This document shows positions 1 through 53,205 of a stretch of 64,000 bases of DNA, one piece after another. Each line of letters begins with the position of its first letter. Position 1 is the stretch's first letter. The DNA comes from an uncultured Acidobacteriota bacterium (lineage in GTDB: Bacteria > Acidobacteriota > Polarisedimenticolia > JACPZX01 > DASXTC01): the NCBI GenBank assembly GCA_963806495.1, contig CAWDYA010000010.1, forward strand, positions 130,971 to 194,970, read 5' to 3'. Made by a program: the position numbers and the translations under genes. The notes under the pieces are model-generated. The model ran no database searches. It worked only from the letters and a program-made list of their open reading frames with translations, and was not told the origin of the DNA.

Positions 1-1330
1 CGCTCGGCCTCGAGCGCCTCCGCGAGCAGACGCAGGCGGCGCAGTGCCGCGGCGATCGCCTCCCCCGCAGCCGCATCCCCCTCGTCTCCCGCGGGCCGGG
101 CGATCAGCCGGTCGGCGTCGTCGTACGTGAGCCGCGCCCGCGAGCGGATGATCGAGGGGACGATCTCCGAGTCGATCACCTCACCTATCGAGGAAACCGT
201 GACCAGGAAGGAGAGGGCGGGCCGGACATCCCCCGCGACCAGGCTCGCCGCCGATTCGGCGAGCGGGCGCGGCAGCATCGACAGCTTGAGATCGGGGAAG
301 TAGAACGTTGCCGCCCGGGACAGAGCCTCGGTGTCGACGAGGCCGCCGATCGGGATGAAATGAGACGGGTCTGCGATGTGGATTCCGATCCGCCAGGCGC
401 CGCCGGTCACCTCGACGCTGAGCGCGTCGTCGAGCTCGGTTGTCAGGTCGTCATCGATGGTGAAGGCCACCAGGTCGGTCAGGTCGCGCCGGCACGCGGG
501 ATCGACCGGCCGCGCGGCGTCGGAGGCCGCCGCCTCCTCCACCTCGGGCGGAAACGAGGTCCGCAGCCGGTACCTGTGGATCGAGAGGTTCTCGTCCGGC
601 CGGAACAGCCCGAGCGCTTCGAGCAGCCGGAACGCACGCTCCTGCGTCGGCCCTTCCGGCACGCCGGCCTCGTCGAGGATCGACACGGCGCCGCGGCGTG
701 ACTCCGCCTCGTCCCCCAGCAACGCGGCTTCCACCAGGTCGGCGATCGTCTCCCGGTGCAGCCGGCCGAACGCACCCTCCATGGCGTGGCCGGGCCCGCT
801 CGCTTCCTGCTGCAGCGCACCGCGGGCGGCATCGAGAAACTCCGCCCGCAGCGCGGCGCGCGCCTTGACCGCGGCCTCCCGCTTCACCGCTTGCTCCACG
901 TGCTCGCGCGACCGCGGCTCGAAATCGTCCCCCTTGCGCGTGAACCAGGTGCGGTCGGCCAGCAGAGCCCGCAGCATCGCCGAGCGGGCGACCGGCGTGT
1001 CCTCCGCGAGCCCCAGCTCGGCGAGATCGGCGAGACTCATACGCTGCGGGTCCTCCACGAGGACCTCCCACAGCGAAGGCAGATCGATCTCGGCGGCCCG
1101 CGACCGCGCCGCCCGGCCATGCTCCTGCGCCGCGTCCGCGGCGCGGCCCATCGAGGCGCCGCCCGCCCGGTGGGCTACGCGCGAGAGCGTGACACGCATC
1201 TCCTTGCCTGTTTCGGTGACGACCTTGAGCCGCCCCTTCTCCTCGCCGGTGACGACCGCGGACACGAGTCCCCCTTCATCGAACAGGTCGACGAGGTCAC
1301 CCGCCCCCGCGGTCATCGCTTTCGTCATGG
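1..1330 (-). CDS. RNase II/R-family 3'-5' exoribonuclease (RNB domain), N-terminal ~443 aa; gene continues beyond window start
   Basis: Manual minus-strand translation from ATG at 1328-1330; absent from ORF track because no stop occurs inside the window: MTKAMTAGAGDLVDLFDEGGLVSAVVTGEEKGRLKVV... (OB/cold-shock-like N-terminus), then RNB motif 'RDLTDLVAFTIDDDLTTELDDALS'. Varied, non-Arg-rich composition. Starts 24 bp downstream of the coxE-like stop on the same strand. Confidence 0.7.
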
Positions 1331-1353
1331 CGTCCCAATCCTCTCCGCCCGGC

Positions 1354-2616
1354 TCACAGCGCCCTCACGATCGCGGCGACTCCACGCGCGATCCCGTCGA
1401 GATCGCGCGCCTCGCATATCACGTCACAGGAAGGAGCGTAGCACGACAGGACCGAGTCGCCCGTGTCCCAGCGCGCTGCCGGCTCCGGGTTCAGCCAGAT
1501 CACGCGCCGCGATCGCCCGGCCATCGCCTCGAAGGCCCAGCCTTGCGGATCGCGGAAGTTGCTGCGCGCGTCGCCGAGCACCACCAGGACCGTATCCCGC
1601 CGCGAGGTCCGCGCGCCGGTCCCGTGCGCGCGTGCCGCCTGGTAGAACGCCCTGCCGTAGTCGCTCGCCGCCTTCGGGTCGAGCGCGTCGAAGGTCTCGA
1701 GGAACCTCGAGAACGAAGCCGGCCCCTCGCCGTCCCAATCCGCCAGCCGCTGTGTGGCATCGACGCACCGGTCGACGAACAGATGGACGGTCGTCCGCCC
1801 GCGCGTCTTGAGAAAACCGCCCGCGAGCATCAGGAACAGCGCCGACGCGCGCGCGACCGACCAGGAGACATCCACGAGCACGGCGACCCGCGGCCGCCTG
1901 GGACGGGGTGCGCGCCGTGGGATCACGAACGGCACGCCGCCCGTCCTCAGGCTGCCCCTCATGACCCGCGGCATCCAGGGACGCCCCCGCGCGGCGCCCC
2001 GCGCTCGCCGTCCGGCGCGCAGGCGGATCTCCCGGATCATCCGGGGCACCTCGCGTGCGAGGCGCTCGTCATCCGCCGAGGTCAGGGGGGCGGCCAGGTC
2101 GAGGCGCCGCGTCCGCCCCGGTCCGCCGGGCCTTCTGCGCTCCTCGGGACGTGCTCCGGGCCGTCCTGCCGGCCGCAGGTGTCGTCCCGGCACCCCCTGT
2201 CTCGGCGCCAGGGGCTCGGCTCCGCGCGTCTCCCGCGGCTCGCGCAATATCCGCAGCCGGCCGGGACGGCGTCGCGGCCCGGGAGCGCGTGGCGTCGCGC
2301 CCGGCGTCCCCACTCCGGGCTCCTGGCTCGGGCGTCGGCGCGTCGCACCGCCTTGTCCCGCCGCCTCGCGCCGTCCCCGGCCCCGGCGCCGACCGCCCTC
2401 ACGGGGCGCGGCGAAGTACGCGGCAAAGACCCGGTCGAATCGCGGGAGGTCCTCATGGGTCTTGACGAGGCTGGCCCGCAGTGCGAGACGCACGGTCTCG
2501 CGCCGCTCGAGGCCGACCGCCCGCAGCGCGCGGGCCGCGTCGATCGCCTCGGCCGGCGACACGGGCAGTCCCGCGCGCCTCAGCTCCGAGACGAAACGCT
2601 GGATCACCCGGATCAT
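1354..2616 (-). CDS. von Willebrand factor A domain protein, CoxE-like
   Basis: 420 aa ORF. CoxE-type N-terminus (MIRVIQRFVSELRRAGLPVSPAEAIDA...), MIDAS-like 'VLVDVSWSV' (D-x-S-x-S), C-terminal VWA fold. Its start lies 1 nt after the stop of the upstream MoxR gene. Confidence 0.8.
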   Translation of the reverse strand: MIRVIQRFVSELRRAGLPVSPAEAIDAARALRAVGLERRETVRLALRASLVKTHEDLPRFDRVFAAYFAAPREGGRRRGRGRREAAGQGGATRRRPSQEPGVGTPGATPRAPGPRRRPGRLRILREPRETRGAEPLAPRQGVPGRHLRPAGRPGARPEERRRPGGPGRTRRLDLAAPLTSADDERLAREVPRMIREIRLRAGRRARGAARGRPWMPRVMRGSLRTGGVPFVIPRRAPRPRRPRVAVLVDVSWSVARASALFLMLAGGFLKTRGRTTVHLFVDRCVDATQRLADWDGEGPASFSRFLETFDALDPKAASDYGRAFYQAARAHGTGARTSRRDTVLVVLGDARSNFRDPQGWAFEAMAGRSRRVIWLNPEPAARWDTGDSVLSCYAPSCDVICEARDLDGIARGVAAIVRAL

Positions 2617-2617
2617 C

Positions 2618-3532
2618 TCAGCGCCCGCGACTCCGGGGGGCCGCGGCCCGCTCGAGGTCCTCCCGGTTCTTGATCAGCGCTCCGAGGGTCCTGCGCAACG
2701 TCGGCTCGTCCAGCTCGCGGGCGCCCACCGCCGCCAGCGCGCGGGCCCAGTCCACGACCTCGGCGATCCCCGGGGCCCTGCGGGCCTCGGACCGGCGGAG
2801 GCCTCCCACGAAGGCCACCACCCGGCGTGCGAGCTCCTCCGAGATGCCCGGGACGCGCAGCATGACGATCCGCACTTCGTCGTCCGGCGCCGGGAAGTCG
2901 ACGTACAGGTACAGGCAGCGGCGGCGCAGCGCGTCCGAGAGATCCCGCGTGTCGTTGCTCGTGAGGATCACGCGGGGCGGATGCGCCGCGCGGATGGTGC
3001 CCAGCTCGGGGATGGACACCTGGTAGTCGGCCAGGATCTCCAGGAGGAACGCCTCGAACTCCTCGTCGCTGCGGTCCACCTCGTCAACCAGCAGCACCGC
3101 CGGCTTCTCCGAGACGATGGCGGCAAGGAGGGGACGCGGGAGAAGAAAATCGCGCGAGAAGAACTCGTCGGCCTGCCCCTTGAGCGCGCCCAGGGACGAT
3201 TTCAGATCCGGAGCCTCCGAGAGCAGATCGCCCACCTTCTCGCGCAGTAGCTGCGCGTACAGCATCTGCTTGCCGTACGACCACTCGTAGATCGCCTTCG
3301 CCTCGTCCAGCCCCTCGTAGCACTGGAGGCGGATCAACTCCACGCCGTGGAACCCGGCCCAGAGCTTGGCGATCTCGGTCTTCCCGACCCCCGGAGGACC
3401 TTCGAGCAGGAGGGGCTTCTCGAGCGTCTCCGAGAGGAAAAGGGAGGTCGCAACCTCGGGGGAGCACACGAATCCAGATTCGTCGAACCGCTGGGTGATC
3501 TGCTCCGGCGTGACCGCCGGACGGCGGCTCAT
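2618..3532 (-). CDS. MoxR-family AAA+ ATPase, CoxD-like (AAA_5)
   Basis: 304 aa. Walker A 'EGPPGVGKTEIAK', Walker B 'VLLVDEVDRSDEE', MoxR/CoxD-like conserved blocks. GGAGGA Shine-Dalgarno sits inside the upstream helicase 3' end; ATGA overlap with the helicase stop. Confidence 0.85.
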   Translation of the reverse strand: MSRRPAVTPEQITQRFDESGFVCSPEVATSLFLSETLEKPLLLEGPPGVGKTEIAKLWAGFHGVELIRLQCYEGLDEAKAIYEWSYGKQMLYAQLLREKVGDLLSEAPDLKSSLGALKGQADEFFSRDFLLPRPLLAAIVSEKPAVLLVDEVDRSDEEFEAFLLEILADYQVSIPELGTIRAAHPPRVILTSNDTRDLSDALRRRCLYLYVDFPAPDDEVRIVMLRVPGISEELARRVVAFVGGLRRSEARRAPGIAEVVDWARALAAVGARELDEPTLRRTLGALIKNREDLERAAAPRSRGR

Positions 3533-4899
3533 TTTCCTCCGCCGGATCCGGAGGATCCGGTCCCCCGTCCGCGCCTGCGGCGGCGTCCGCCGCCCGAGGA
3601 GCTCCTCTGCCCCGCATCCTTCGAGGCCGACGCAGCCCTCGGCTTGTCCGACGAGGAGCGCCTCTTGCCACCGCTGCGTCCCCCGCGCGGCCGGCGTGAT
3701 CGCCCCCCGGAGGGCCGCCGCGGCTCCTCTTCGGCCTCCGCCTCGCCGGGCCCCTCGTCGCCGTACGACTCGAGCGGGAGCTCCATCCCCGTGAGATCCC
3801 GGATTTCACCGAGCCGCTTCAGGTCGCGCGCGGTGACGAACGTGATCGCGTGCCCGGCGCGGCCCGCACGCGCGGTACGCCCCACCCGGTGGACGTAGTC
3901 GTCGGCGTCCATCGGAATATCGTAGTTGATGACGTGCGTGATCCCGCCGATGTCGATCCCACGGCCCGCCACGTCGGTGGCCACCAGGATGTGCACCTCG
4001 CCGCGGCGGAACATGTCCATGATCCCTTCGCGGTGACGCTGCTCCTGCAGCGACGACAGCCGCGCCGCCTCGTATCCTTTCTCGCGCAGCTTGCGCATGA
4101 TGTCGCCCGTCGATTCACGCCGCGCGGTGAAGATCAGGCAGCGGTCGGGGCTCTCCTGGTTGAGCACATCGAGCAGGAGCGGCATCTTGCGGTCCTCACG
4201 GACCCGGTAGATCGACTGGCGGACCCGATCGGCCACCATGGTGGACGGCGAGACCTGGACTTCGTGCGGGTGCATCATGTACGACTGCGCGATCTTCTTG
4301 ACGGCGGGCGGCAGTGTCGCGCTGAACAGCATCGTCTGACGCGACAGCGGCGCGCGGCGGCACAGAAAGTCGATGTCGTCGATGAAGCCCATGTCCAGCA
4401 TCCGGTCCGCCTCGTCCAGCACGAGCCACTTGATGTACCGCATGCGCAGGATCGCCGACTTGACGAAATCGATCAGCCGTCCCGGCGTGCCCACGACGAT
4501 GTCGGCTCCGGCGAAGATCTCGCGCCTCTGGTGCCCGATCGAGGTGCCGCCGTAGACCGGCAGCGCCCGCACCGCCAGATGCGCCGCGAGTTTCTCCGCC
4601 TCGCCGCAGACCTGGATGGCCAATTCCCGCGTGGGAGTGACGATCAGGGCCTGAACCTGGCCGGTCGCCTCGATCATCTGGAGGATCGGTATCAGGAAGG
4701 CCGCCGTCTTGCCCGTGCCGGTCTGCGCCATGCCGGCGATATCGCGGCCTGTGAGCGCCACGGGGATCACCTGCTCCTGGATAGGCGTGCAGACGGTGTA
4801 ACCCGACTCGGCGATAGCGTCGAGAAGCTTCTGGTTCAGCTTGAGGGCCGAAAACGGAAGCGGAGTCGGGGACTCGGCCGGTGCCTGAGGTTGGCTCAT
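3529..4899 (-). CDS. DEAD-box ATP-dependent RNA helicase with RGG-rich C-terminal tail
   Basis: Q-motif 'TPIQ', motif I 'AQTGTGKT', Ia 'PTRELA', II 'DEAD', III 'SAT', and a C-terminal Arg/Gly/Ser-rich tail. ORF track starts at 4968, but the likely start is ATG at 4897-4899 (MSQPQAPAE...). Confidence 0.85.
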   Translation of the reverse strand: MSQPQAPAESPTPLPFSALKLNQKLLDAIAESGYTVCTPIQEQVIPVALTGRDIAGMAQTGTGKTAAFLIPILQMIEATGQVQALIVTPTRELAIQVCGEAEKLAAHLAVRALPVYGGTSIGHQRREIFAGADIVVGTPGRLIDFVKSAILRMRYIKWLVLDEADRMLDMGFIDDIDFLCRRAPLSRQTMLFSATLPPAVKKIAQSYMMHPHEVQVSPSTMVADRVRQSIYRVREDRKMPLLLDVLNQESPDRCLIFTARRESTGDIMRKLREKGYEAARLSSLQEQRHREGIMDMFRRGEVHILVATDVAGRGIDIGGITHVINYDIPMDADDYVHRVGRTARAGRAGHAITFVTARDLKRLGEIRDLTGMELPLESYGDEGPGEAEAEEEPRRPSGGRSRRPRGGRSGGKRRSSSDKPRAASASKDAGQRSSSGGGRRRRRGRGTGSSGSGGGK

Positions 4900-4910
4900 A
4901 GCGGACGCAT

Positions 4911-4919
4911 ATTCTAGCA
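4911..4919 (-). promoter_or_regulatory. candidate extended -10 element (TGcTAGAAT) for the helicase-MoxR-VWA-RNB operon, ~11 nt upstream of the ATG (short or near-leaderless mRNA)
   Basis: Reverse complement reads 'gtgcTAGAATatgcgtccgctATG'. An AT-rich hexamer is conspicuous in ~70% GC DNA. No convincing -35 element. Confidence 0.35.
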
Positions 4920-5056
4920 CACGCTCCCCGCGGCCGCGTAAAGCGTCGGATTCCTTTTGCGCGACCACCTTTTGTTGTACACTTCGTCAGGTCGAGTCGC
5001 TCCGCGGCGGAGGGGGGAGGAAGGCCCCCGCGCGGGCCGCCACCCCCGGGGTCACG

Positions 5057-6754
5057 ATGTCCGAACTGCTCTGGTCCTTCGATCAACTGGCACGCTTCAC
5101 CCGTTACGACGATCCGGAAGTCCGTTACTGGGCCGCGGATCGACTCGTGACGCTCTTCCCCGCCGAAGCGGCCGACGTGATCGCCGAGCTGCTGCTCGAC
5201 GACCACGACTCCACGCCCGAGCTGGTCGCGCAGCACCTCGCGCGCCACGGGAAACCCCATCACATTCCGGTCGTGCTCCGCGGCTTCAGGCACAGCGAGG
5301 GCCTGCTGCCGGGCCGCTGCTTCGATGCCCTGGCCCGTCTGGGCTACGAGAACGCGCCGATGATCGCCGAGACCGCCCTCTTCCGGCGCGATCTGTCCGA
5401 GCAGTGTCTCGCGATCATCGTCGCGGCTCTGGCCGAGTCTGCCGCGCCGGGAGCGGCCGAGAGAGCGCACGAGTTCCTCCTCAGACGCCCCGAGCTGTTC
5501 GCCGAGCCCGCGGCGCTGCGGGCGGCGGTGCGCCTGAGCGCGCCGCAGGATTTCGGCGAGGTGATCCTCAAGTGGCTCACCGCCCTCCACTTCCGCGGTA
5601 TCGAGCCGATCGAGAGCTGCATCCGCGTGCTGTACGAGGAGCTCCAGCTCGAGGACAGCGGCTGGTGCATCCGCACGGGACGCAGCGGGCGGATCGACCT
5701 GCCCCGCACCATCAAGGCGATAGAAAGCGGATACGATCTCGACCTGCACGACGCCATACCGCAGCGGGTTCGCGACGAGATCGCCGGGAGGCTCGACCGT
5801 GGCTCCTTTGCCGAGATCGCCGGGACGCTCGGGCGGCTCGTGTTGGAGCGCGCGGCCGCCCTGCTGCCCCATCCGGAGGATCGCCTGCCGGATCGGCTCC
5901 AGTCGCTCGGACAGGCGTTCACCCAGCCCTCGACGCTGCAGATCGCGGAGCGTCTCGAGCCCGCGATGCAGCAGTGGCTGGTCGGCGCGTTGCTCGCCTC
6001 CACCGTGAAGGTGTCCACCTACAGGAACTACCTGCTGGAGATGCATGCCGCGGGCGACAGGGTCGACGCCCTGCTGGGACTCGCCGGGGCGGAGACCTCC
6101 TGCCTGCTCAGCTCGCTGCCCGAGAAGCTGAGCGCCGCGGGCGCGGCCGGCGGAGCGGCGGAGGCGGCCATCATCGACTGGTGCGTGCGCACTCTGGAGG
6201 CGCGGGGTCCCTTCTTTCCCAAGTCGATCGCGCTGGAGACTCTGGGGAGACTGCGCGCCGCGCGTCTCATCCCGGAGATCGCCGCCCATCTGTCCGACGA
6301 CAACCCCTACATCTACGGAGCCGCGGAGCGCGCGCTCGCGCGGATCGGGGCGCCCGTGCTGGGCTACATCAGCGCGACGATGGCCAGAGGAGGCGTGCAT
6401 CCCGACGCGATGCAGAGCCTCGTGCGGCTGGCGTGCGACATGGGTCGCGTCGAATCGCTGCGGCTCGTGCTCGACCACTTCGACGAGATATACGAGACGA
6501 TCGGCCCGGAGGCGGCATCCGAGGCCGTCGGAATGCTCGGCCATCCCGACCTGATCCCGTCCCTGAGACGCTGGCTGGATCGCTCGCGGGCAATGGTGGG
6601 TCAGGCGCTCCTGCTCGCGGGGGCGATCGGCAACCTCCCGATCCCCGAGGAAGAGTCGATCCTCAAGGCGATCGACGACTACTGGAAGGGTGCCGCCGAA
6701 GGGATCGACGACGGCCCGGAGCAGGACAGCCCGACCGGCCCTTACCTCATGTGA
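5057..6754 (+). CDS. HEAT-repeat (PBS-lyase-like) protein, function unknown
   Basis: 565 aa with balanced composition and repeated alpha-helical Ala/Leu-rich HEAT-like units ('DPEVRYWAADRLV', 'NPYIYGAAERALARIG'). Divergent from the helicase operon. Confidence 0.55.
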   Translation: MSELLWSFDQLARFTRYDDPEVRYWAADRLVTLFPAEAADVIAELLLDDHDSTPELVAQHLARHGKPHHIPVVLRGFRHSEGLLPGRCFDALARLGYENAPMIAETALFRRDLSEQCLAIIVAALAESAAPGAAERAHEFLLRRPELFAEPAALRAAVRLSAPQDFGEVILKWLTALHFRGIEPIESCIRVLYEELQLEDSGWCIRTGRSGRIDLPRTIKAIESGYDLDLHDAIPQRVRDEIAGRLDRGSFAEIAGTLGRLVLERAAALLPHPEDRLPDRLQSLGQAFTQPSTLQIAERLEPAMQQWLVGALLASTVKVSTYRNYLLEMHAAGDRVDALLGLAGAETSCLLSSLPEKLSAAGAAGGAAEAAIIDWCVRTLEARGPFFPKSIALETLGRLRAARLIPEIAAHLSDDNPYIYGAAERALARIGAPVLGYISATMARGGVHPDAMQSLVRLACDMGRVESLRLVLDHFDEIYETIGPEAASEAVGMLGHPDLIPSLRRWLDRSRAMVGQALLLAGAIGNLPIPEEESILKAIDDYWKGAAEGIDDGPEQDSPTGPYLM

Positions 6755-30852: not shown

Positions 30853-31036
30853 CGGCCCGAGGGTCCGTTTCAGCGAGTCGGGCAGGGTCTCCTCCTCGAT
30901 GACGCGCATACCGTGAGGGATGCTTATACCACATCCGGCGGCCCGGGCGGCGCGTTTCCTTGCCCGGCCGCCTCTGCTATGCTCCGGGCGATATCCCGCA
31001 TCCCCCCCGAGGGGATCAGATCATCCAGTCTCACCC

Positions 31037-34000
31037 ATGGTGCGAACCCCGATGCTCTGCCCCGTCTGTCAGACCCCCAACCCCGATGACGGCCGTTTCT
31101 GCAGCCAGTGCGCCGAGCCGCTCCTCGCGAAGACGGGCGCCTCCCGCCCCGGGTCGGCGGGATCACTCGCGGCCACCACGGCGGGCGGCATCACCGGCTC
31201 GGGCATCCGGTCGGGCTCCCTGCCTCCGGGCCACCTGCTCGGCGACAGGTACCGGATCGAGGCGGCGCTCGGCATGGGCGGCATGGGGATGGTCTACCGG
31301 GCGATCGATTGCGAGCTGAACGTCCCGGTGGCGCTCAAGCTGATCCGCGGCGAGTACGCCGACAACCCGCAGATCGTCGAGCGATTCAAGAAGGAGATCA
31401 CGATCGCCCGGCGGGTGACGCACCGCAATGTCGCGCGCATCTACGACATGGGTGAGGCGGAAGGGTTCCGGTACATCTCGATGGAATACATCGAGGGCCG
31501 TGACCTGGCGGGGCTCGTCGCGGAGAAGGGGCGGTTCGGCGTGGAGGAGACGCTCTCGATGCTGAGACAGGTGTGCGCCGCGCTGAAGGAGGCTCACGCG
31601 TCGGGCGTCGTGCATCGCGACCTCAAGCCCCACAACATCATGCTCGACGCCTCCGGTGGCGCCCACGTCATGGACTTCGGCATCGCCATGGCGGCCGACG
31701 CGGGAGGCATGACCCGTACCGGCGCGCTGGTCGGCACGCCGGAATACATGTCCCCCGAGCAGGCCGAGGGCCGCCGCGTCGATCACCGCTCCGACATCTA
31801 CTCGCTCGGGATCACCCTGTACGAGATCCTCGCGGGCGACGCCCCGTTCAAAGGGGACACGACGTGGGAGGTCATCAGGAAGCAGGTCACCCAGCGCCCC
31901 CAGTCGATCCGCAGGCTGCGCAAGGACGTCCCGGAGTGGCTCGACACGCTGATCCTCAAGTGCCTGGAGAAGGACCCGGCACTGCGATACCAGTCGGTCG
32001 GCGAGATCCTCAACGATCTCGACCGCCAGAAGGCACGGCTCTCCCCGCGTCACTACCTGCCATCGCGGCGCTCCGTGCTGCTCGGTGCGGCGGCGCTCGT
32101 GCTCGTCGCGGCCGCGGTGGGCGTGACGATGTACCTCGGCCCGAGGACGCCGGTGGCCGGCGAGGACGGCCGGCGCTCCGTGGCGATCCTCCCCTTCCAG
32201 AACCAGACGGGCCGGGCCGATCTCGACTGGCTGCGCACCGGGCTGGCCGACAACCTCACCACCGATCTGGCCGAATCGAGGTACTTCCGCGTCCTGTCAC
32301 GGGAGCGGCTGACGCAGATCCTCGGCCAGCTCGGCCTCGACGATGTCTCGCGGCTGGACGCGGCGGCACTGCAGAAGATCGGCGAGTTCGGCGCCGTGGA
32401 GGCGATCATCACCGGATCGTTCCTCAGCGCCGGCGACGAGATCCGCGTGAACCTGCGACTGCAGGATCCCGCCACCGGGGAGATCTTCCGCAGCGCCTCG
32501 GTCAACGGACGCGAGAGCCAGGTGCTCGGGATGATCGACGGTCTGACCCGGACGACCAAGCAGATGTTCCAGCTCGCGCCCGAGCGGCTCGCCGGGGACA
32601 GCGACCTGGATCTCGCCTCGGCGCGCACCTCGGTGGTCGAGGCCGCCAGCGCCTTCCAGCGGGGCGTCGACCTCCTTTACCAGGGCCGGAATCTCGAAGC
32701 GATCGGGCCGCTGGAGGCGGCGGTCTCGGCCGATCCGCGCTTCGCGATGGCGCACGCCCGTCTCGCGGAGGCCCACATGCGCACCGGGCACGACAGCGAG
32801 GCGCTCCAGGAGAGCCAGGCCGCCATGGACCGCATGCTGGCGGAGGCCGAGAAGATCCCGCAGGCGGACCGCACCTTCATCCGCGCGCTGCACGGCAGGA
32901 TCAGCAACAGGCCCGAAGAGTCGATACGCGCCTACGAGGAGCTGCTTGCGGGCGACCCCGGCGATTCGTTCGTCTCGTTCAGCCTCGGGGAGGTCATCGA
33001 GGGCACAGGCGACTTCCCGGCGGCTGAGAAGCGGTTCGAGGACGCGATCGCGGGCGATCGGAAGAACCCGGTGCTGCATTTCGCGCTGGGGCGCGTGCGG
33101 ATCAAGGCGGGTCGGGACGAGGAGGCGCTGCCGGAGCTGCAGAAGGCGCTCGAGCTGTACGGGCAGATGGGCAGCGAGGAGGGGCAGGGCAACACGCTCA
33201 ACGCCATGGCGCTCGCCAACGAGGATATCGGCCGGTACCAGGAGGCGCTCGACTACTACGGCCGCTCCGAGGCGATCAAGCGCCGGATCGGGGACAAGCG
33301 CGGCCTCGCCTCCACGCTGAACAACAAGGCGTTCCTCCTGCAGATCCAGGGGCACCTGAAGGACGCTACCCGCATCACCGACGAGGCACTGGCACTCACC
33401 CGCGAGATCGGCGACACCGATCACACCGCCGCGATCCTCGCGAACCTCGGGAGCCTCGAGGACGAGGGCGGCGACCCGGAACGGGCCGCGTCGTACTACA
33501 CCGAGGCGCTCGAGCTGAGGCGCACGCTCAAGGATCGTGCCGGGCAGGTGACCTGCCTGATCGGCATGAACCGCGCCGATGCAGCCATGGGACGGCTCGC
33601 GCAGGCCGAGGAGCGGCTGGACGAAGCGGGCCGGATCGCACGCGAGATCGATGACCGGGAGAGCCAGGCGCAGATCGTCTCGGAGCGGGCACGGATCGCC
33701 TGGCTGCGCGGCGACCTGCCGGCGGCACGCGCCGGGCAGCTCGACGCGGTCGCACGATGGCAGGAGGTCGAGCGGAGCGACGGCGTCGCCGAGGCCCGCC
33801 AGCGTCTCGCGTTCGTCGAGGCGTCGGCCGGACTTCATGGCAGCGCCCGGCGGTCGGCCCTCGAGGCGCTGTCGACCTACGTCGATCTGGAGGACAGGAC
33901 CAATCAGGCCCGGCTCAATCTCCTGCTCGCCCGGCTGTCTCTTGCCGACGGCGACCCGGCCGGCGCGCTGAAGAAGGAAGGCGAGGCGTCCGACGCGCTC

Positions 34001-34621
34001 GCGCTGCTGGACAACCCCGTCCTCTCCGCGCAGGCGGCGCTGACCCGTTGCCGCGCGCTGCTGGCCAGGGATGACGCCGCGGGGGCGCGCGAGGCAGCCG
34101 AGGAGGTCTGCGCCGCGGCGAAGCGGACCCCCGCCGTCCTCGCCTCGATCCAGTGCGGGCTGGCCCGCAGCCTCACCGGTAGCGCGTCGGACGCGGTCTC
34201 GCAGGCCCTGACCGCCTCCACGCGGGCGGCCGACAACGGCCTCGCACTGCTTCACGTCGAGGCGGACCTGGCGCTCGCCTCCGCGTACCTGCGGGCCGGA
34301 GAGGCCTCGCAGGCTTCGACCCGCGCGCGCCTCGCGATGGAGGAGGCGTCGAAGCGGGGCCTGCCGCTGCCCCAGCTCGAAGCGGCGCCGATGGTCGCAC
34401 GCGCGCAGTGGGGCGCGGGTCGGCGGGACGAGGCGGTCAGAACCCTCCAGGCAGCCTTCACGGCGCTCGAGCCGACGGAGGCGGATCTCGAGCCGGCCGC
34501 ACTCGCCGCTTTCCGCGCCGGCGCCCGCTACCACGCCGCAGCCGCGCTGCTGGCAGGGTACCTGAAAGAACTGGGCCGGGACGCGGAGGCGGCAACCATC
34601 AGCCGCCGCGCGGGTCTCTGA
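31037..34621 (+). CDS. multidomain Ser/Thr protein kinase: N-terminal zinc ribbon, Hanks kinase, TM helix, periplasmic domain, long TPR array
   Basis: 'CPVCQTPNPDDGRFCSQC' zinc ribbon. Kinase motifs 'VALKLI', 'HRDLKPHNIML', 'DFGIA', 'GTPEYMSPE'. TM 'VLLGAAALVLVAAAVGVTMYL'. TPR-like repeats over ~700 aa (e.g. 'LGNTLNAMALANEDIGRYQEALDYYGRSEAI'). Start at ATG 31037; the ORF track begins at 30920. Confidence 0.85.
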   Translation: MVRTPMLCPVCQTPNPDDGRFCSQCAEPLLAKTGASRPGSAGSLAATTAGGITGSGIRSGSLPPGHLLGDRYRIEAALGMGGMGMVYRAIDCELNVPVALKLIRGEYADNPQIVERFKKEITIARRVTHRNVARIYDMGEAEGFRYISMEYIEGRDLAGLVAEKGRFGVEETLSMLRQVCAALKEAHASGVVHRDLKPHNIMLDASGGAHVMDFGIAMAADAGGMTRTGALVGTPEYMSPEQAEGRRVDHRSDIYSLGITLYEILAGDAPFKGDTTWEVIRKQVTQRPQSIRRLRKDVPEWLDTLILKCLEKDPALRYQSVGEILNDLDRQKARLSPRHYLPSRRSVLLGAAALVLVAAAVGVTMYLGPRTPVAGEDGRRSVAILPFQNQTGRADLDWLRTGLADNLTTDLAESRYFRVLSRERLTQILGQLGLDDVSRLDAAALQKIGEFGAVEAIITGSFLSAGDEIRVNLRLQDPATGEIFRSASVNGRESQVLGMIDGLTRTTKQMFQLAPERLAGDSDLDLASARTSVVEAASAFQRGVDLLYQGRNLEAIGPLEAAVSADPRFAMAHARLAEAHMRTGHDSEALQESQAAMDRMLAEAEKIPQADRTFIRALHGRISNRPEESIRAYEELLAGDPGDSFVSFSLGEVIEGTGDFPAAEKRFEDAIAGDRKNPVLHFALGRVRIKAGRDEEALPELQKALELYGQMGSEEGQGNTLNAMALANEDIGRYQEALDYYGRSEAIKRRIGDKRGLASTLNNKAFLLQIQGHLKDATRITDEALALTREIGDTDHTAAILANLGSLEDEGGDPERAASYYTEALELRRTLKDRAGQVTCLIGMNRADAAMGRLAQAEERLDEAGRIAREIDDRESQAQIVSERARIAWLRGDLPAARAGQLDAVARWQEVERSDGVAEARQRLAFVEASAGLHGSARRSALEALSTYVDLEDRTNQARLNLLLARLSLADGDPAGALKKEGEASDALALLDNPVLSAQAALTRCRALLARDDAAGAREAAEEVCAAAKRTPAVLASIQCGLARSLTGSASDAVSQALTASTRAADNGLALLHVEADLALASAYLRAGEASQASTRARLAMEEASKRGLPLPQLEAAPMVARAQWGAGRRDEAVRTLQAAFTALEPTEADLEPAALAAFRAGARYHAAAALLAGYLKELGRDAEAATISRRAGL

Positions 34622-53128: not shown

Positions 53129-53205
53129 GGGCCCTTAGCTCAGCTGGATAGAGCGTCTGACTACGAATCAGAAGGTCGGGTGTTCGAATCACCCAGGGCC
53201 CACCA
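53129..53205 (+). tRNA. tRNA-Arg (anticodon ACG), CCA encoded
   Basis: Cloverleaf read by eye: acceptor GGGCCCT/AGGGCCC, D arm GCTC-AGCTGGAT-AGAGC, anticodon stem TCTGA/TCAGA with loop CTACGAA, T arm GGGTG-TTCGAAT-CACCC, discriminator A, then CCA. Confidence 0.85.

Follow-up and report, generated by a model that had tools for sequence, protein, structure and literature searches.

MoxR-family AAA+ ATPases form pairs with proteins that carry a von Willebrand factor A (VWA) domain, and every characterised MoxR-VWA pair serves a metalloenzyme or an enzyme complex (PMC3893208; PMC7159879). CoxD, the ATPase of the CoxD-CoxE pair, has been assigned to the APE2220 subfamily of MoxR (PMC3893208). Here we analyse a pair of this type in a window of 64,000 nucleotides (the whole stretch of DNA examined), positions 130,971 to 194,970 of contig CAWDYA010000010.1 from an uncultured Acidobacteriota bacterium. 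At its left end a CoxD-type MoxR gene and a CoxE-type VWA gene stand between a DEAD-box RNA helicase gene and the gene of an RNase II-family exoribonuclease (RNB). A sequence-only reading of the window had suggested that these genes form an AAA+/VWA-regulated RNA-decay or RNA-surveillance module, one that it could not match to a described system. Comparison across related loci upholds the linkage of the pair to the RNB gene and takes the helicase out of the conserved unit, which, judged by gene order, is the MoxR-VWA-RNB triad and not the four-gene set. On this evidence a real functional link between the MoxR-VWA pair and the RNase is probable. Whether the triad is a cassette of a CoxD-type MoxR, a CoxE-type adaptor with a metal-ion-dependent adhesion site (MIDAS) and an RNase II-family exoribonuclease, with the RNase or its ribonucleoproteins (RNPs) as the client of the pair, we regard as an even call. 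The novelty held up: our literature search found no account of a MoxR-VWA-exoribonuclease arrangement, and the comparative-genomic survey of vWA-MoxR systems (PMC7159879) names no RNB partner. MoxR-VWA pairs as such are already known; what appears new is the partner class, an exoribonuclease.

The RNB gene accompanies one clade of MoxR-VWA pairs. We scanned genomes with the MoxR protein and metagenomes with the VWA protein (80 loci each), reading neighbourhoods by tblastn anchors and clustering of six-frame open reading frames (ORFs); a locus counted as informative when it held enough DNA downstream of the VWA gene. RNB directly follows VWA in the window and in 12 of 12 informative clade loci (L003, L084, L085, L086, L089, L090 and L092-L097); of 110 informative loci whose CoxD/CoxE-like pair is more distant, none has it. 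Wherever the metagenome scan returned a MoxR 66-80% identical to that of the window, with DNA continuing past VWA, RNB was the next gene (L089, L090, L092-L097); it occurred in no locus whose MoxR was at most 54% identical. The genome scan supplies an outgroup from other phyla, not an Acidobacteriota census: the MoxRs listed are 46-58% identical and come from Chloroflexota, Pseudomonadota, Binatia and others. A VWA gene was also detected by tblastn in 71 of these 80 loci, some contigs being too short, and none of the 80, among the matches listed, has an RNB gene or an adjoining DEAD-box gene. Nine further VWA/RNB pairs appear, from the hit lists, to share one contig each.

Phylogeny groups the RNB-linked ATPases together. 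In a neighbour-joining tree of 141 MoxR sequences all 16 RNB-linked MoxRs fall into a single clade that takes in no other sequence. Identity within this clade is 67% or higher (67-80%), and no outsider exceeds 63.5%; its sister loci, L004 and L023, carry simple MoxR-VWA pairs. The closest database relatives by MoxR are 70-100% identical, and those with names belong to Candidatus Polarisedimenticolia, a class of Acidobacteriota.

The genes are packed tightly in the window and in its relatives. The cluster comprises the following features:

3529..4899, minus strand: DEAD-box RNA helicase, 456 aa from a probable ATG at 4899, with an Arg/Gly/Ser-rich C-terminal tail
2618..3532, minus strand: MoxR-family AAA+ ATPase of the CoxD/APE2220 type, 304 aa
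1354..2616, minus strand: CoxE-type VWA adaptor protein, 420 aa, Pfam VWA_CoxE
1..1328, minus strand: 5' part of the RNase II-family exoribonuclease (RNB) gene, 442 codons, open at the window edge
4911..4919, minus strand: extended -10-like motif TGcTAGAAT, 11 nt upstream of the helicase ATG

Pfam profile searches agree with the families first assigned to all four close-packed minus-strand genes. The junctions read from the sequence are also as described, except for one base: helicase and MoxR share an ATGA start/stop overlap, with GGAGGA upstream; the MoxR TGA is separated from the VWA ATG by a single nucleotide; and the short gap before RNB measures 25 nt from the VWA stop to the RNB ATG, not 24, and contains GGAGAGGA. 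The RNB gene does run off the window, as had been noted: P0142, a database protein of the same 195,589-bp contig, is identical to the 442-codon fragment and extends past the window edge. Across the clade MoxR and VWA are joined by 4-nt overlaps or small gaps, and the spacing of VWA and RNB in most loci lies between a 19-nt overlap and a 25-nt gap.

Such packing could arise without any functional meaning, the four genes being independent neighbours in a compact high-GC genome and the juxtaposition of helicase and RNB a coincidence. Promoter and terminator scans favour neither side, and the helicase is indeed missing from most clade loci. This explanation is nonetheless highly improbable: start/stop overlaps persist in relatives whose VWA and RNB proteins have diverged to 40-60% identity, and chance cannot account for an RNB gene in 12 of 12 loci inside the clade and 0 of 110 outside it.

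Transcription signals in the window are faint. A consensus promoter scan called no promoter within positions 1-5200, and terminator-like matches within the cluster are no commoner than in shuffled sequence. The single extended -10 that had been placed before the helicase is present and is retained in L001 as TGCTAAGAT; it is missing from the consensus scan and not evident in L084 or L089. Kept in one relative and not evident in two others, the putative promoter is plausible but unproven, and its leader would be very short. Across a 157-nt intergenic region lies a divergent gene for a 565-aa HEAT-repeat protein (5057-6754, plus strand), whose expression might be tied to that of the operon. GTGTACAACAAA (4971-4982, minus strand), some 55 nt further upstream than the -10-like motif, recurs nearly unchanged in L001 (GTCTACAACAAA) and may be a regulator site common to both divergent genes.

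The helicase belongs to one sub-lineage. The protein matches the Pfam profiles DEAD (8e-51) and Helicase_C (1e-30), and its translation contains TPIQ, AQTGTGKT, PTRELA, TPGRL, DEAD, SAT, ARGID and HRVGRTARAG; with the Q motif and motifs I, Ia, Ib, II, III, V and VI in two RecA-like domains it is a DEAD-box family member. Its best NCBIfam models, CshA, DbpA, RhlB and RhlE, each score below the equivalog cut-off. A DEAD-box gene precedes MoxR only in the window, L001/L002, L084 and L089, which we call group A and which share the order DEAD-MoxR-VWA-RNB-DAO; the ATGA coupling of helicase to MoxR is retained there. L084 reproduces the order of the window at greater length (S49 peptidase, divergent HEAT gene, DEAD-MoxR-VWA-RNB, FAD oxidoreductase), and the HEAT gene keeps its position in all group A loci (L001, L084, L089) at 59-63% identity. 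Elsewhere in the clade the place upstream of MoxR is taken by a NuoB-like gene with a Methyltransf_28 gene, by a tetratricopeptide repeat (TPR) gene or by a divergent gene. Since other members carry different upstream genes, the conserved module comprises three genes, and on its distribution the helicase is a later, lineage-specific addition. The placement of MoxR-VWA between helicase and exonuclease, on which the sequence-only reading had built, is thus true of the window and group A and not general in the clade.

The sequences of the three core proteins locate their catalytic and binding elements:

3377..3400, minus strand: Walker A motif GPPGVGKT of MoxR, residues 45-52, invariant in 24 aligned clade members
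3074-3094, minus strand: Walker B motif LLVDEVD of MoxR, invariant in 24 aligned clade members
1858..1872, minus strand: MIDAS motif DVSWS of the VWA protein, residues 249-253; D249, S251 and S253 invariant in 62 aligned homologues
2122..2415, minus strand: linker of the VWA protein, disordered and Arg/Pro/Gly-rich, roughly residues 68-165, with a predicted local distance difference test score (pLDDT) of 45-65
426..455, minus strand: catalytic motif I of RNB, IDDDLTTELDD, residues 291-301, shared by every triad RNB

The ATPase is of the CoxD type. It matches Pfam AAA_5 (3e-12) and also AAA, is 51% identical over 288 residues to the authentic CoxD of plasmid pHCG3, and keeps its sensor residues invariant across the same 24-member clade alignment. 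Among solved structures its closest sequence match is midasin. The pair also matches the MadB/MadC models (NCBIfam NF047784 / NF047783), at 322 bits against a cut-off of 475 and 168 bits against 600. Because authentic CoxD/CoxE and unrelated pairs score alike, this match marks the superfamily only. We rejected a MadB/MadC identity: the scores fall below the equivalog cut-offs, and the literature found under those names concerns unrelated proteins only.

The VWA protein carries a basic linker peculiar to the RNB-linked clade. It matches Pfam VWA_CoxE (8e-26), and an AlphaFold2 model (mean pLDDT 83.7) gives it a four-helix N-domain predicted with confidence (residues 2-67), a disordered region (68-165), a long helix and the VWA domain. 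The Foldseek matches are VWA domains of a generic kind, apart from the second-ranked one, NorD of the NorQD complex; they are consistent with an adaptor role, without discriminating. The linker of the window has a net charge of +20 and 26% Arg over 114 scored residues (69-182). In 12 of 12 clade loci the charge is +11 to +21 and the Arg content 18-28%, and 68 database matches have a median charge of +16.5. The same region in other CoxE-like proteins is acidic or neutral, with a median charge of -6 across 110 proteins and of -4 among those of high GC content, and the sister pairs L004 and L023 score -28 and +4. By this comparison the Arg-rich basic linker is derived and specific to the RNB-linked clade, and its composition suggests an RNA-binding-like tail. 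Within the disordered linker lies a clade-conserved GRLRILRE motif (2242-2268, minus strand; VWA residues 117-125), modelled as a beta-strand at pLDDT ~82, which may be a docking or pore-insertion element.

Flanking genes change around the triad. Group B (L003, L085, L092-L098, L100) has the order NuoB-like, Methyltransf_28, triad, Fer4/CCG, Rieske, Fer4. L085 has an additional TPR gene upstream, and L003 lacks the upstream part of the group B arrangement and has a divergent gene there. In L085 (4471-6203), L094-L098 and L100, a small NuoB-like (Oxidored_q6) gene and a Methyltransf_28 gene sit tightly and co-directionally before MoxR. Methyltransf_28 is, we take it, the family of the complex-I arginine methyltransferase NDUFAF7; that the group B enzyme methylates the Arg-rich linker of the VWA protein would be pure speculation. 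L086 has the triad alone, with a divergent acetyltransferase gene upstream and neither group A nor group B flanks. Across at least three flanking contexts the triad is the sole constant element.

These redox genes raise the most serious rival explanation, because of the group B cluster and a precedent in RavA-ViaA, which is reported to interact with Nuo (PMC3893208). The pair would then mature a metallo- or redox enzyme encoded nearby or at a distance, and RNB would be a passenger held by inherited synteny without a direct link. Candidate clients are the NuoB-like, Methyltransf_28, Fer4/CCG and Rieske proteins of group B, the FAD oxidoreductase of group A or a complex-I-like enzyme. The enzyme clients of all characterised pairs speak for this explanation, as do the tight co-directional NuoB-like and Methyltransf_28 genes before the triad, the Fer4/CCG gene downstream in the far-reaching loci (L003, L085, L092, L093, L095-L097) with Rieske and Fer4 genes further on where the sequence reaches, and complex-I-like genes 2 kb downstream in L084. 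Yet no redox gene is constant: group A, the upstream side of L003, and L086 do without them, whereas no informative locus of the clade lacks RNB. Near non-clade pairs, too, the group B redox genes never occur, and a redox client leaves the derived basic linker and the later recruitment of the helicase unexplained. We therefore consider this rival rather unlikely.

Outside the clade, the neighbours of CoxD/CoxE-like pairs are varied. Only 2-3 of 148 non-clade pairs (L004-L083, L099-L168) lie beside CO-dehydrogenase genes (L072, L082, perhaps L051), and no neighbour family is common to more than 10 of the 80 genome loci. With few CO-dehydrogenase neighbours and no shared neighbour family, most CoxD/CoxE-family members are therefore orphans. 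A constant link of the clade to another client, such as CO dehydrogenase, would have spoken against the RNA-decay proposal; none was found near the clade pairs. We rejected CO dehydrogenase as the client because tblastn with pHCG3 queries (E<=1e-8) found no CoxM, S, L, F or G match in the 64-kb window or the clade loci.

A second monophyletic CoxD/CoxE-like clade (L008, L022, L025, L032, L036, L053, L074, also L034) occurs in Binatia and 'deltaproteobacterial' metagenome-assembled genomes. There a BFN_dom (PF02577) nuclease gene follows the pair, for example at L036:3102-3662, directly adjacent in 5 of 7 loci, and a TANGO2 gene upstream on the opposite strand adjoins MoxR in most loci. Judged by these gene orders, nuclease genes may have joined MoxR-VWA pairs on separate occasions.

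The exoribonuclease itself is of an ordinary type. The window fragment matches Pfam wH_RNase_II, HTH_RNase_II and RNB (2e-43) and comprises an N-terminal beta-barrel, a winged helix, a double helix-turn-helix (HTH) and the beginning of the RNB domain. It is 62% identical to the full-length orthologue of L084 (identical to P0121), whose model (pLDDT 94.2) continues through the RNB core to a C-terminal beta-barrel and structurally matches the Deinococcus RNase II-family protein 2r7d best, then RNase R and RNase II. The N-terminus thus has a beta-barrel, winged helix and double HTH in place of cold-shock domains. All triad RNBs keep motif I (IDxxxTxExDDA), motif II (GxHIAD) and motif IV (SPxRRYxDLxxHR); motif IV falls beyond the window and is visible in P0142. 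We take the motif I positions, in our own numbering, to correspond to E. coli RNase II D201, D207 (Glu here), D209 and D210; the Glu at the D207 position also occurs in a stand-alone cyanobacterial relative. The protein reaches neither the RNase R equivalog TIGR02063 (254 bits, cut-off 598) nor the RNase II equivalog TIGR02062 (166 bits, cut-off 642). RNB relatives outside the clade stand alone, in Wallbacteria, on a contig before an RF-1-domain gene and on a cyanobacterial contig after rpsR. By this comparison the enzyme is a housekeeping-type RNase that was captured by, or captured, a MoxR-VWA pair.

The deposited copy from the window genome is irregular at its end. P0142, called as 1071 aa, matches its orthologues up to ...SPIRRYQDLVVHR, after which some 120 residues are apparently in the wrong frame, and its tail runs into an FAD oxidoreductase (DAO), which L084 and L089 encode as a gene of its own downstream. 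This layout points to a single frameshift, perhaps an assembly error or a real pseudogene; a fusion is less likely.

An RNase beside an ATPase switch also invites a reading as a conflict or defence system, in which MoxR-VWA would be the threshold switch and the RNase the toxic effector that it gates, the arrangement suggested for vWA-MoxR ternary systems. CoxD/CoxE-like pairs have been proposed as ancestors of such switches, and the four-helix N-domain of CoxE is common to vWA proteins of iSTAND systems (PMC7159879); the second clade of pairs, followed by its own nuclease gene, points the same way. The VWA protein, however, consists only of the N-helical domain, linker and VWA domain, with no fused effector domain, and the gene tables show no VMAP/iSTAND-type third gene in the cluster, no search with VMAP or iSTAND profiles having been made. 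PADLOC gave no specific match for MoxR, VWA or RNB, only generic P-loop noise, and no relatives were found on viral contigs, so we rejected a known defence system. MoxR conservation of 67-80% in core-genome contexts, and RNB relatives that stand alone elsewhere, by rpsR or an RF-1-domain gene, also count against this reading, which is very unlikely. The ternary conflict system that the earlier reading had floated for such pairs was accordingly not borne out, given no PADLOC match, no viral copy, no extra effector domain and an RNB family that looks housekeeping-like elsewhere.

We favour a model in which the pair works on the RNase. The cassette would have arisen a single time, when a free-standing MoxR-VWA pair in an Acidobacteriota lineage (the Polarisedimenticolia with their relatives) became coupled to an RNB gene of housekeeping type. 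The VWA protein would bind the RNase or its RNP substrate through the MIDAS site and RNA through the derived Arg-rich linker, and the MoxR hexamer would spend ATP to remodel, load, release, unlock or gate the nuclease. In group A the added helicase, translationally coupled to MoxR, would unwind structured substrates for the exonuclease. The module would run in parallel to CbbQ-CbbO on Rubisco, NorQ-NorD on NO reductase and midasin on pre-ribosomes. The sequences show the gene content, coupling, conservation, monophyly, intact motifs and clade-specific linker; that the proteins bind each other, which way control runs and which RNAs are degraded we infer, and we hold this particular sequence of MIDAS binding, linker-RNA contact, ATP-driven work and helicase unwinding tentatively, as doubtful in its details. 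A broader form is possible, though we place it below an even chance: an AAA+/MIDAS machine dedicated to RNA decay, whose MoxR hexamer and RNA-binding VWA protein mechanically load, unload or unlock a processive RNase II-type enzyme on structured RNAs or ribosomal particles, with a four-part, ATP-driven RNA-surveillance complex including the helicase in some lineages.

Several observations weigh against the RNase as client. The group B triad lies inside a longer co-directional cluster of redox genes, a possible home of the true client. Named clade members come from one phylum only, so part of the conservation could be inherited synteny. Triad RNBs have the same architecture as their stand-alone relatives and no domain beyond theirs, so the RNase bears no feature of its own that would single it out as a client of MoxR-VWA. 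The RNB gene of the window genome leaves frame after motif IV in the deposited assembly. The support throughout is comparative genomics on metagenome-assembled DNA, and we know of no MoxR-VWA pair with a nuclease client.

If this broader form is correct, MoxR ATPases would gain their first nuclease client, and the triad would be a prokaryotic counterpart of midasin- or Ro-type RNP remodelling that would extend AAA+/MIDAS remodelling to bacterial RNA decay. RNase II-type enzymes stall at structured RNA, and the module hints at how they might be assisted or controlled in Acidobacteriota, a dominant and poorly studied phylum of soils and sediments. The RNB-linked clade also offers a concrete client candidate for an orphan branch of the widespread MoxR-VWA pairs.

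The remainder of the 64-kb window is ordinary chromosome. A 1234-aa ORF at 30917-34621 (plus strand) joins a Ser/Thr protein kinase domain to a CsgG-like segment and to long TPR/MalT-like repeats, and a tRNA-Arg (ACG) at 53129-53205 (plus strand) is the sole Rfam or ARAGORN match.

Known systems resemble the triad in parts. CoxD-CoxE of Afipia (Oligotropha) carboxidovorans shares its protein families, the order of a MoxR gene directly followed by a CoxE-type VWA gene (here after a 1-nt gap) and the CoxE-type four-helix N-domain. It differs in the next gene, an exoribonuclease here and the XdhC-like CoxF there, and coxMSL, coxF and coxG have no counterpart in the window; the linker here is strongly basic, and the VWA protein is too diverged from CoxE for a tblastn match at 1e-8. 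CbbQ-CbbO, NorQ-NorD and RavA-ViaA likewise encode an AAA+ ATPase and a MIDAS adaptor beside a client. They belong to other MoxR subfamilies (CGN, RavA), and their clients are Rubisco, NO reductase and respiratory complexes. Midasin/Rea1 also combines AAA_5-type modules with a MIDAS domain and remodels RNA-protein particles (pre-60S), but it is one giant eukaryotic polypeptide without a nuclease, and the match to it reflects the AAA_5 fold only.

Systems built around nucleases complete the comparison. Ro60 (Rsr)-Y RNA-PNPase joins a vWA/MIDAS protein to a 3'-5' exoribonuclease, and a TROVE structure ranks 12 among matches of the VWA model; here Pfam finds no TROVE domain and Rfam no Y RNA near the operon, the nuclease is RNB and not PNPase, and Ro has no AAA+ partner. 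A Y-RNA-like partner was rejected, as Rfam finds only one tRNA in the window. Complexes of a helicase with an RNB enzyme have precedents in H. pylori, where RhpA works with RNase R (PMC8136821), and in yeast mtEXO (Suv3-Dss1; PDB 6f4a), which is among the structural matches of the L084 RNB model. In both, a helicase unwinds RNA for an RNase II-family exonuclease. By analogy the DEAD-box and RNB proteins of the window, whose genes are linked by co-location plus translational coupling, could act likewise in a helicase-exonuclease complex. Both precedents lack an AAA+/VWA part, the H. pylori genes do not form one operon, and the helicase here belongs to one sub-lineage. Closest to the nuclease itself are Deinococcus radiodurans 2r7d, with a template modelling (TM) score of 0.87 normalised to the target, and the cyanobacterial RNase II, 40% identical over 57% of the query and with the same Glu at the D207 position. 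Those enzymes stand alone, whereas here the gene is tightly coupled to a MoxR-VWA pair.

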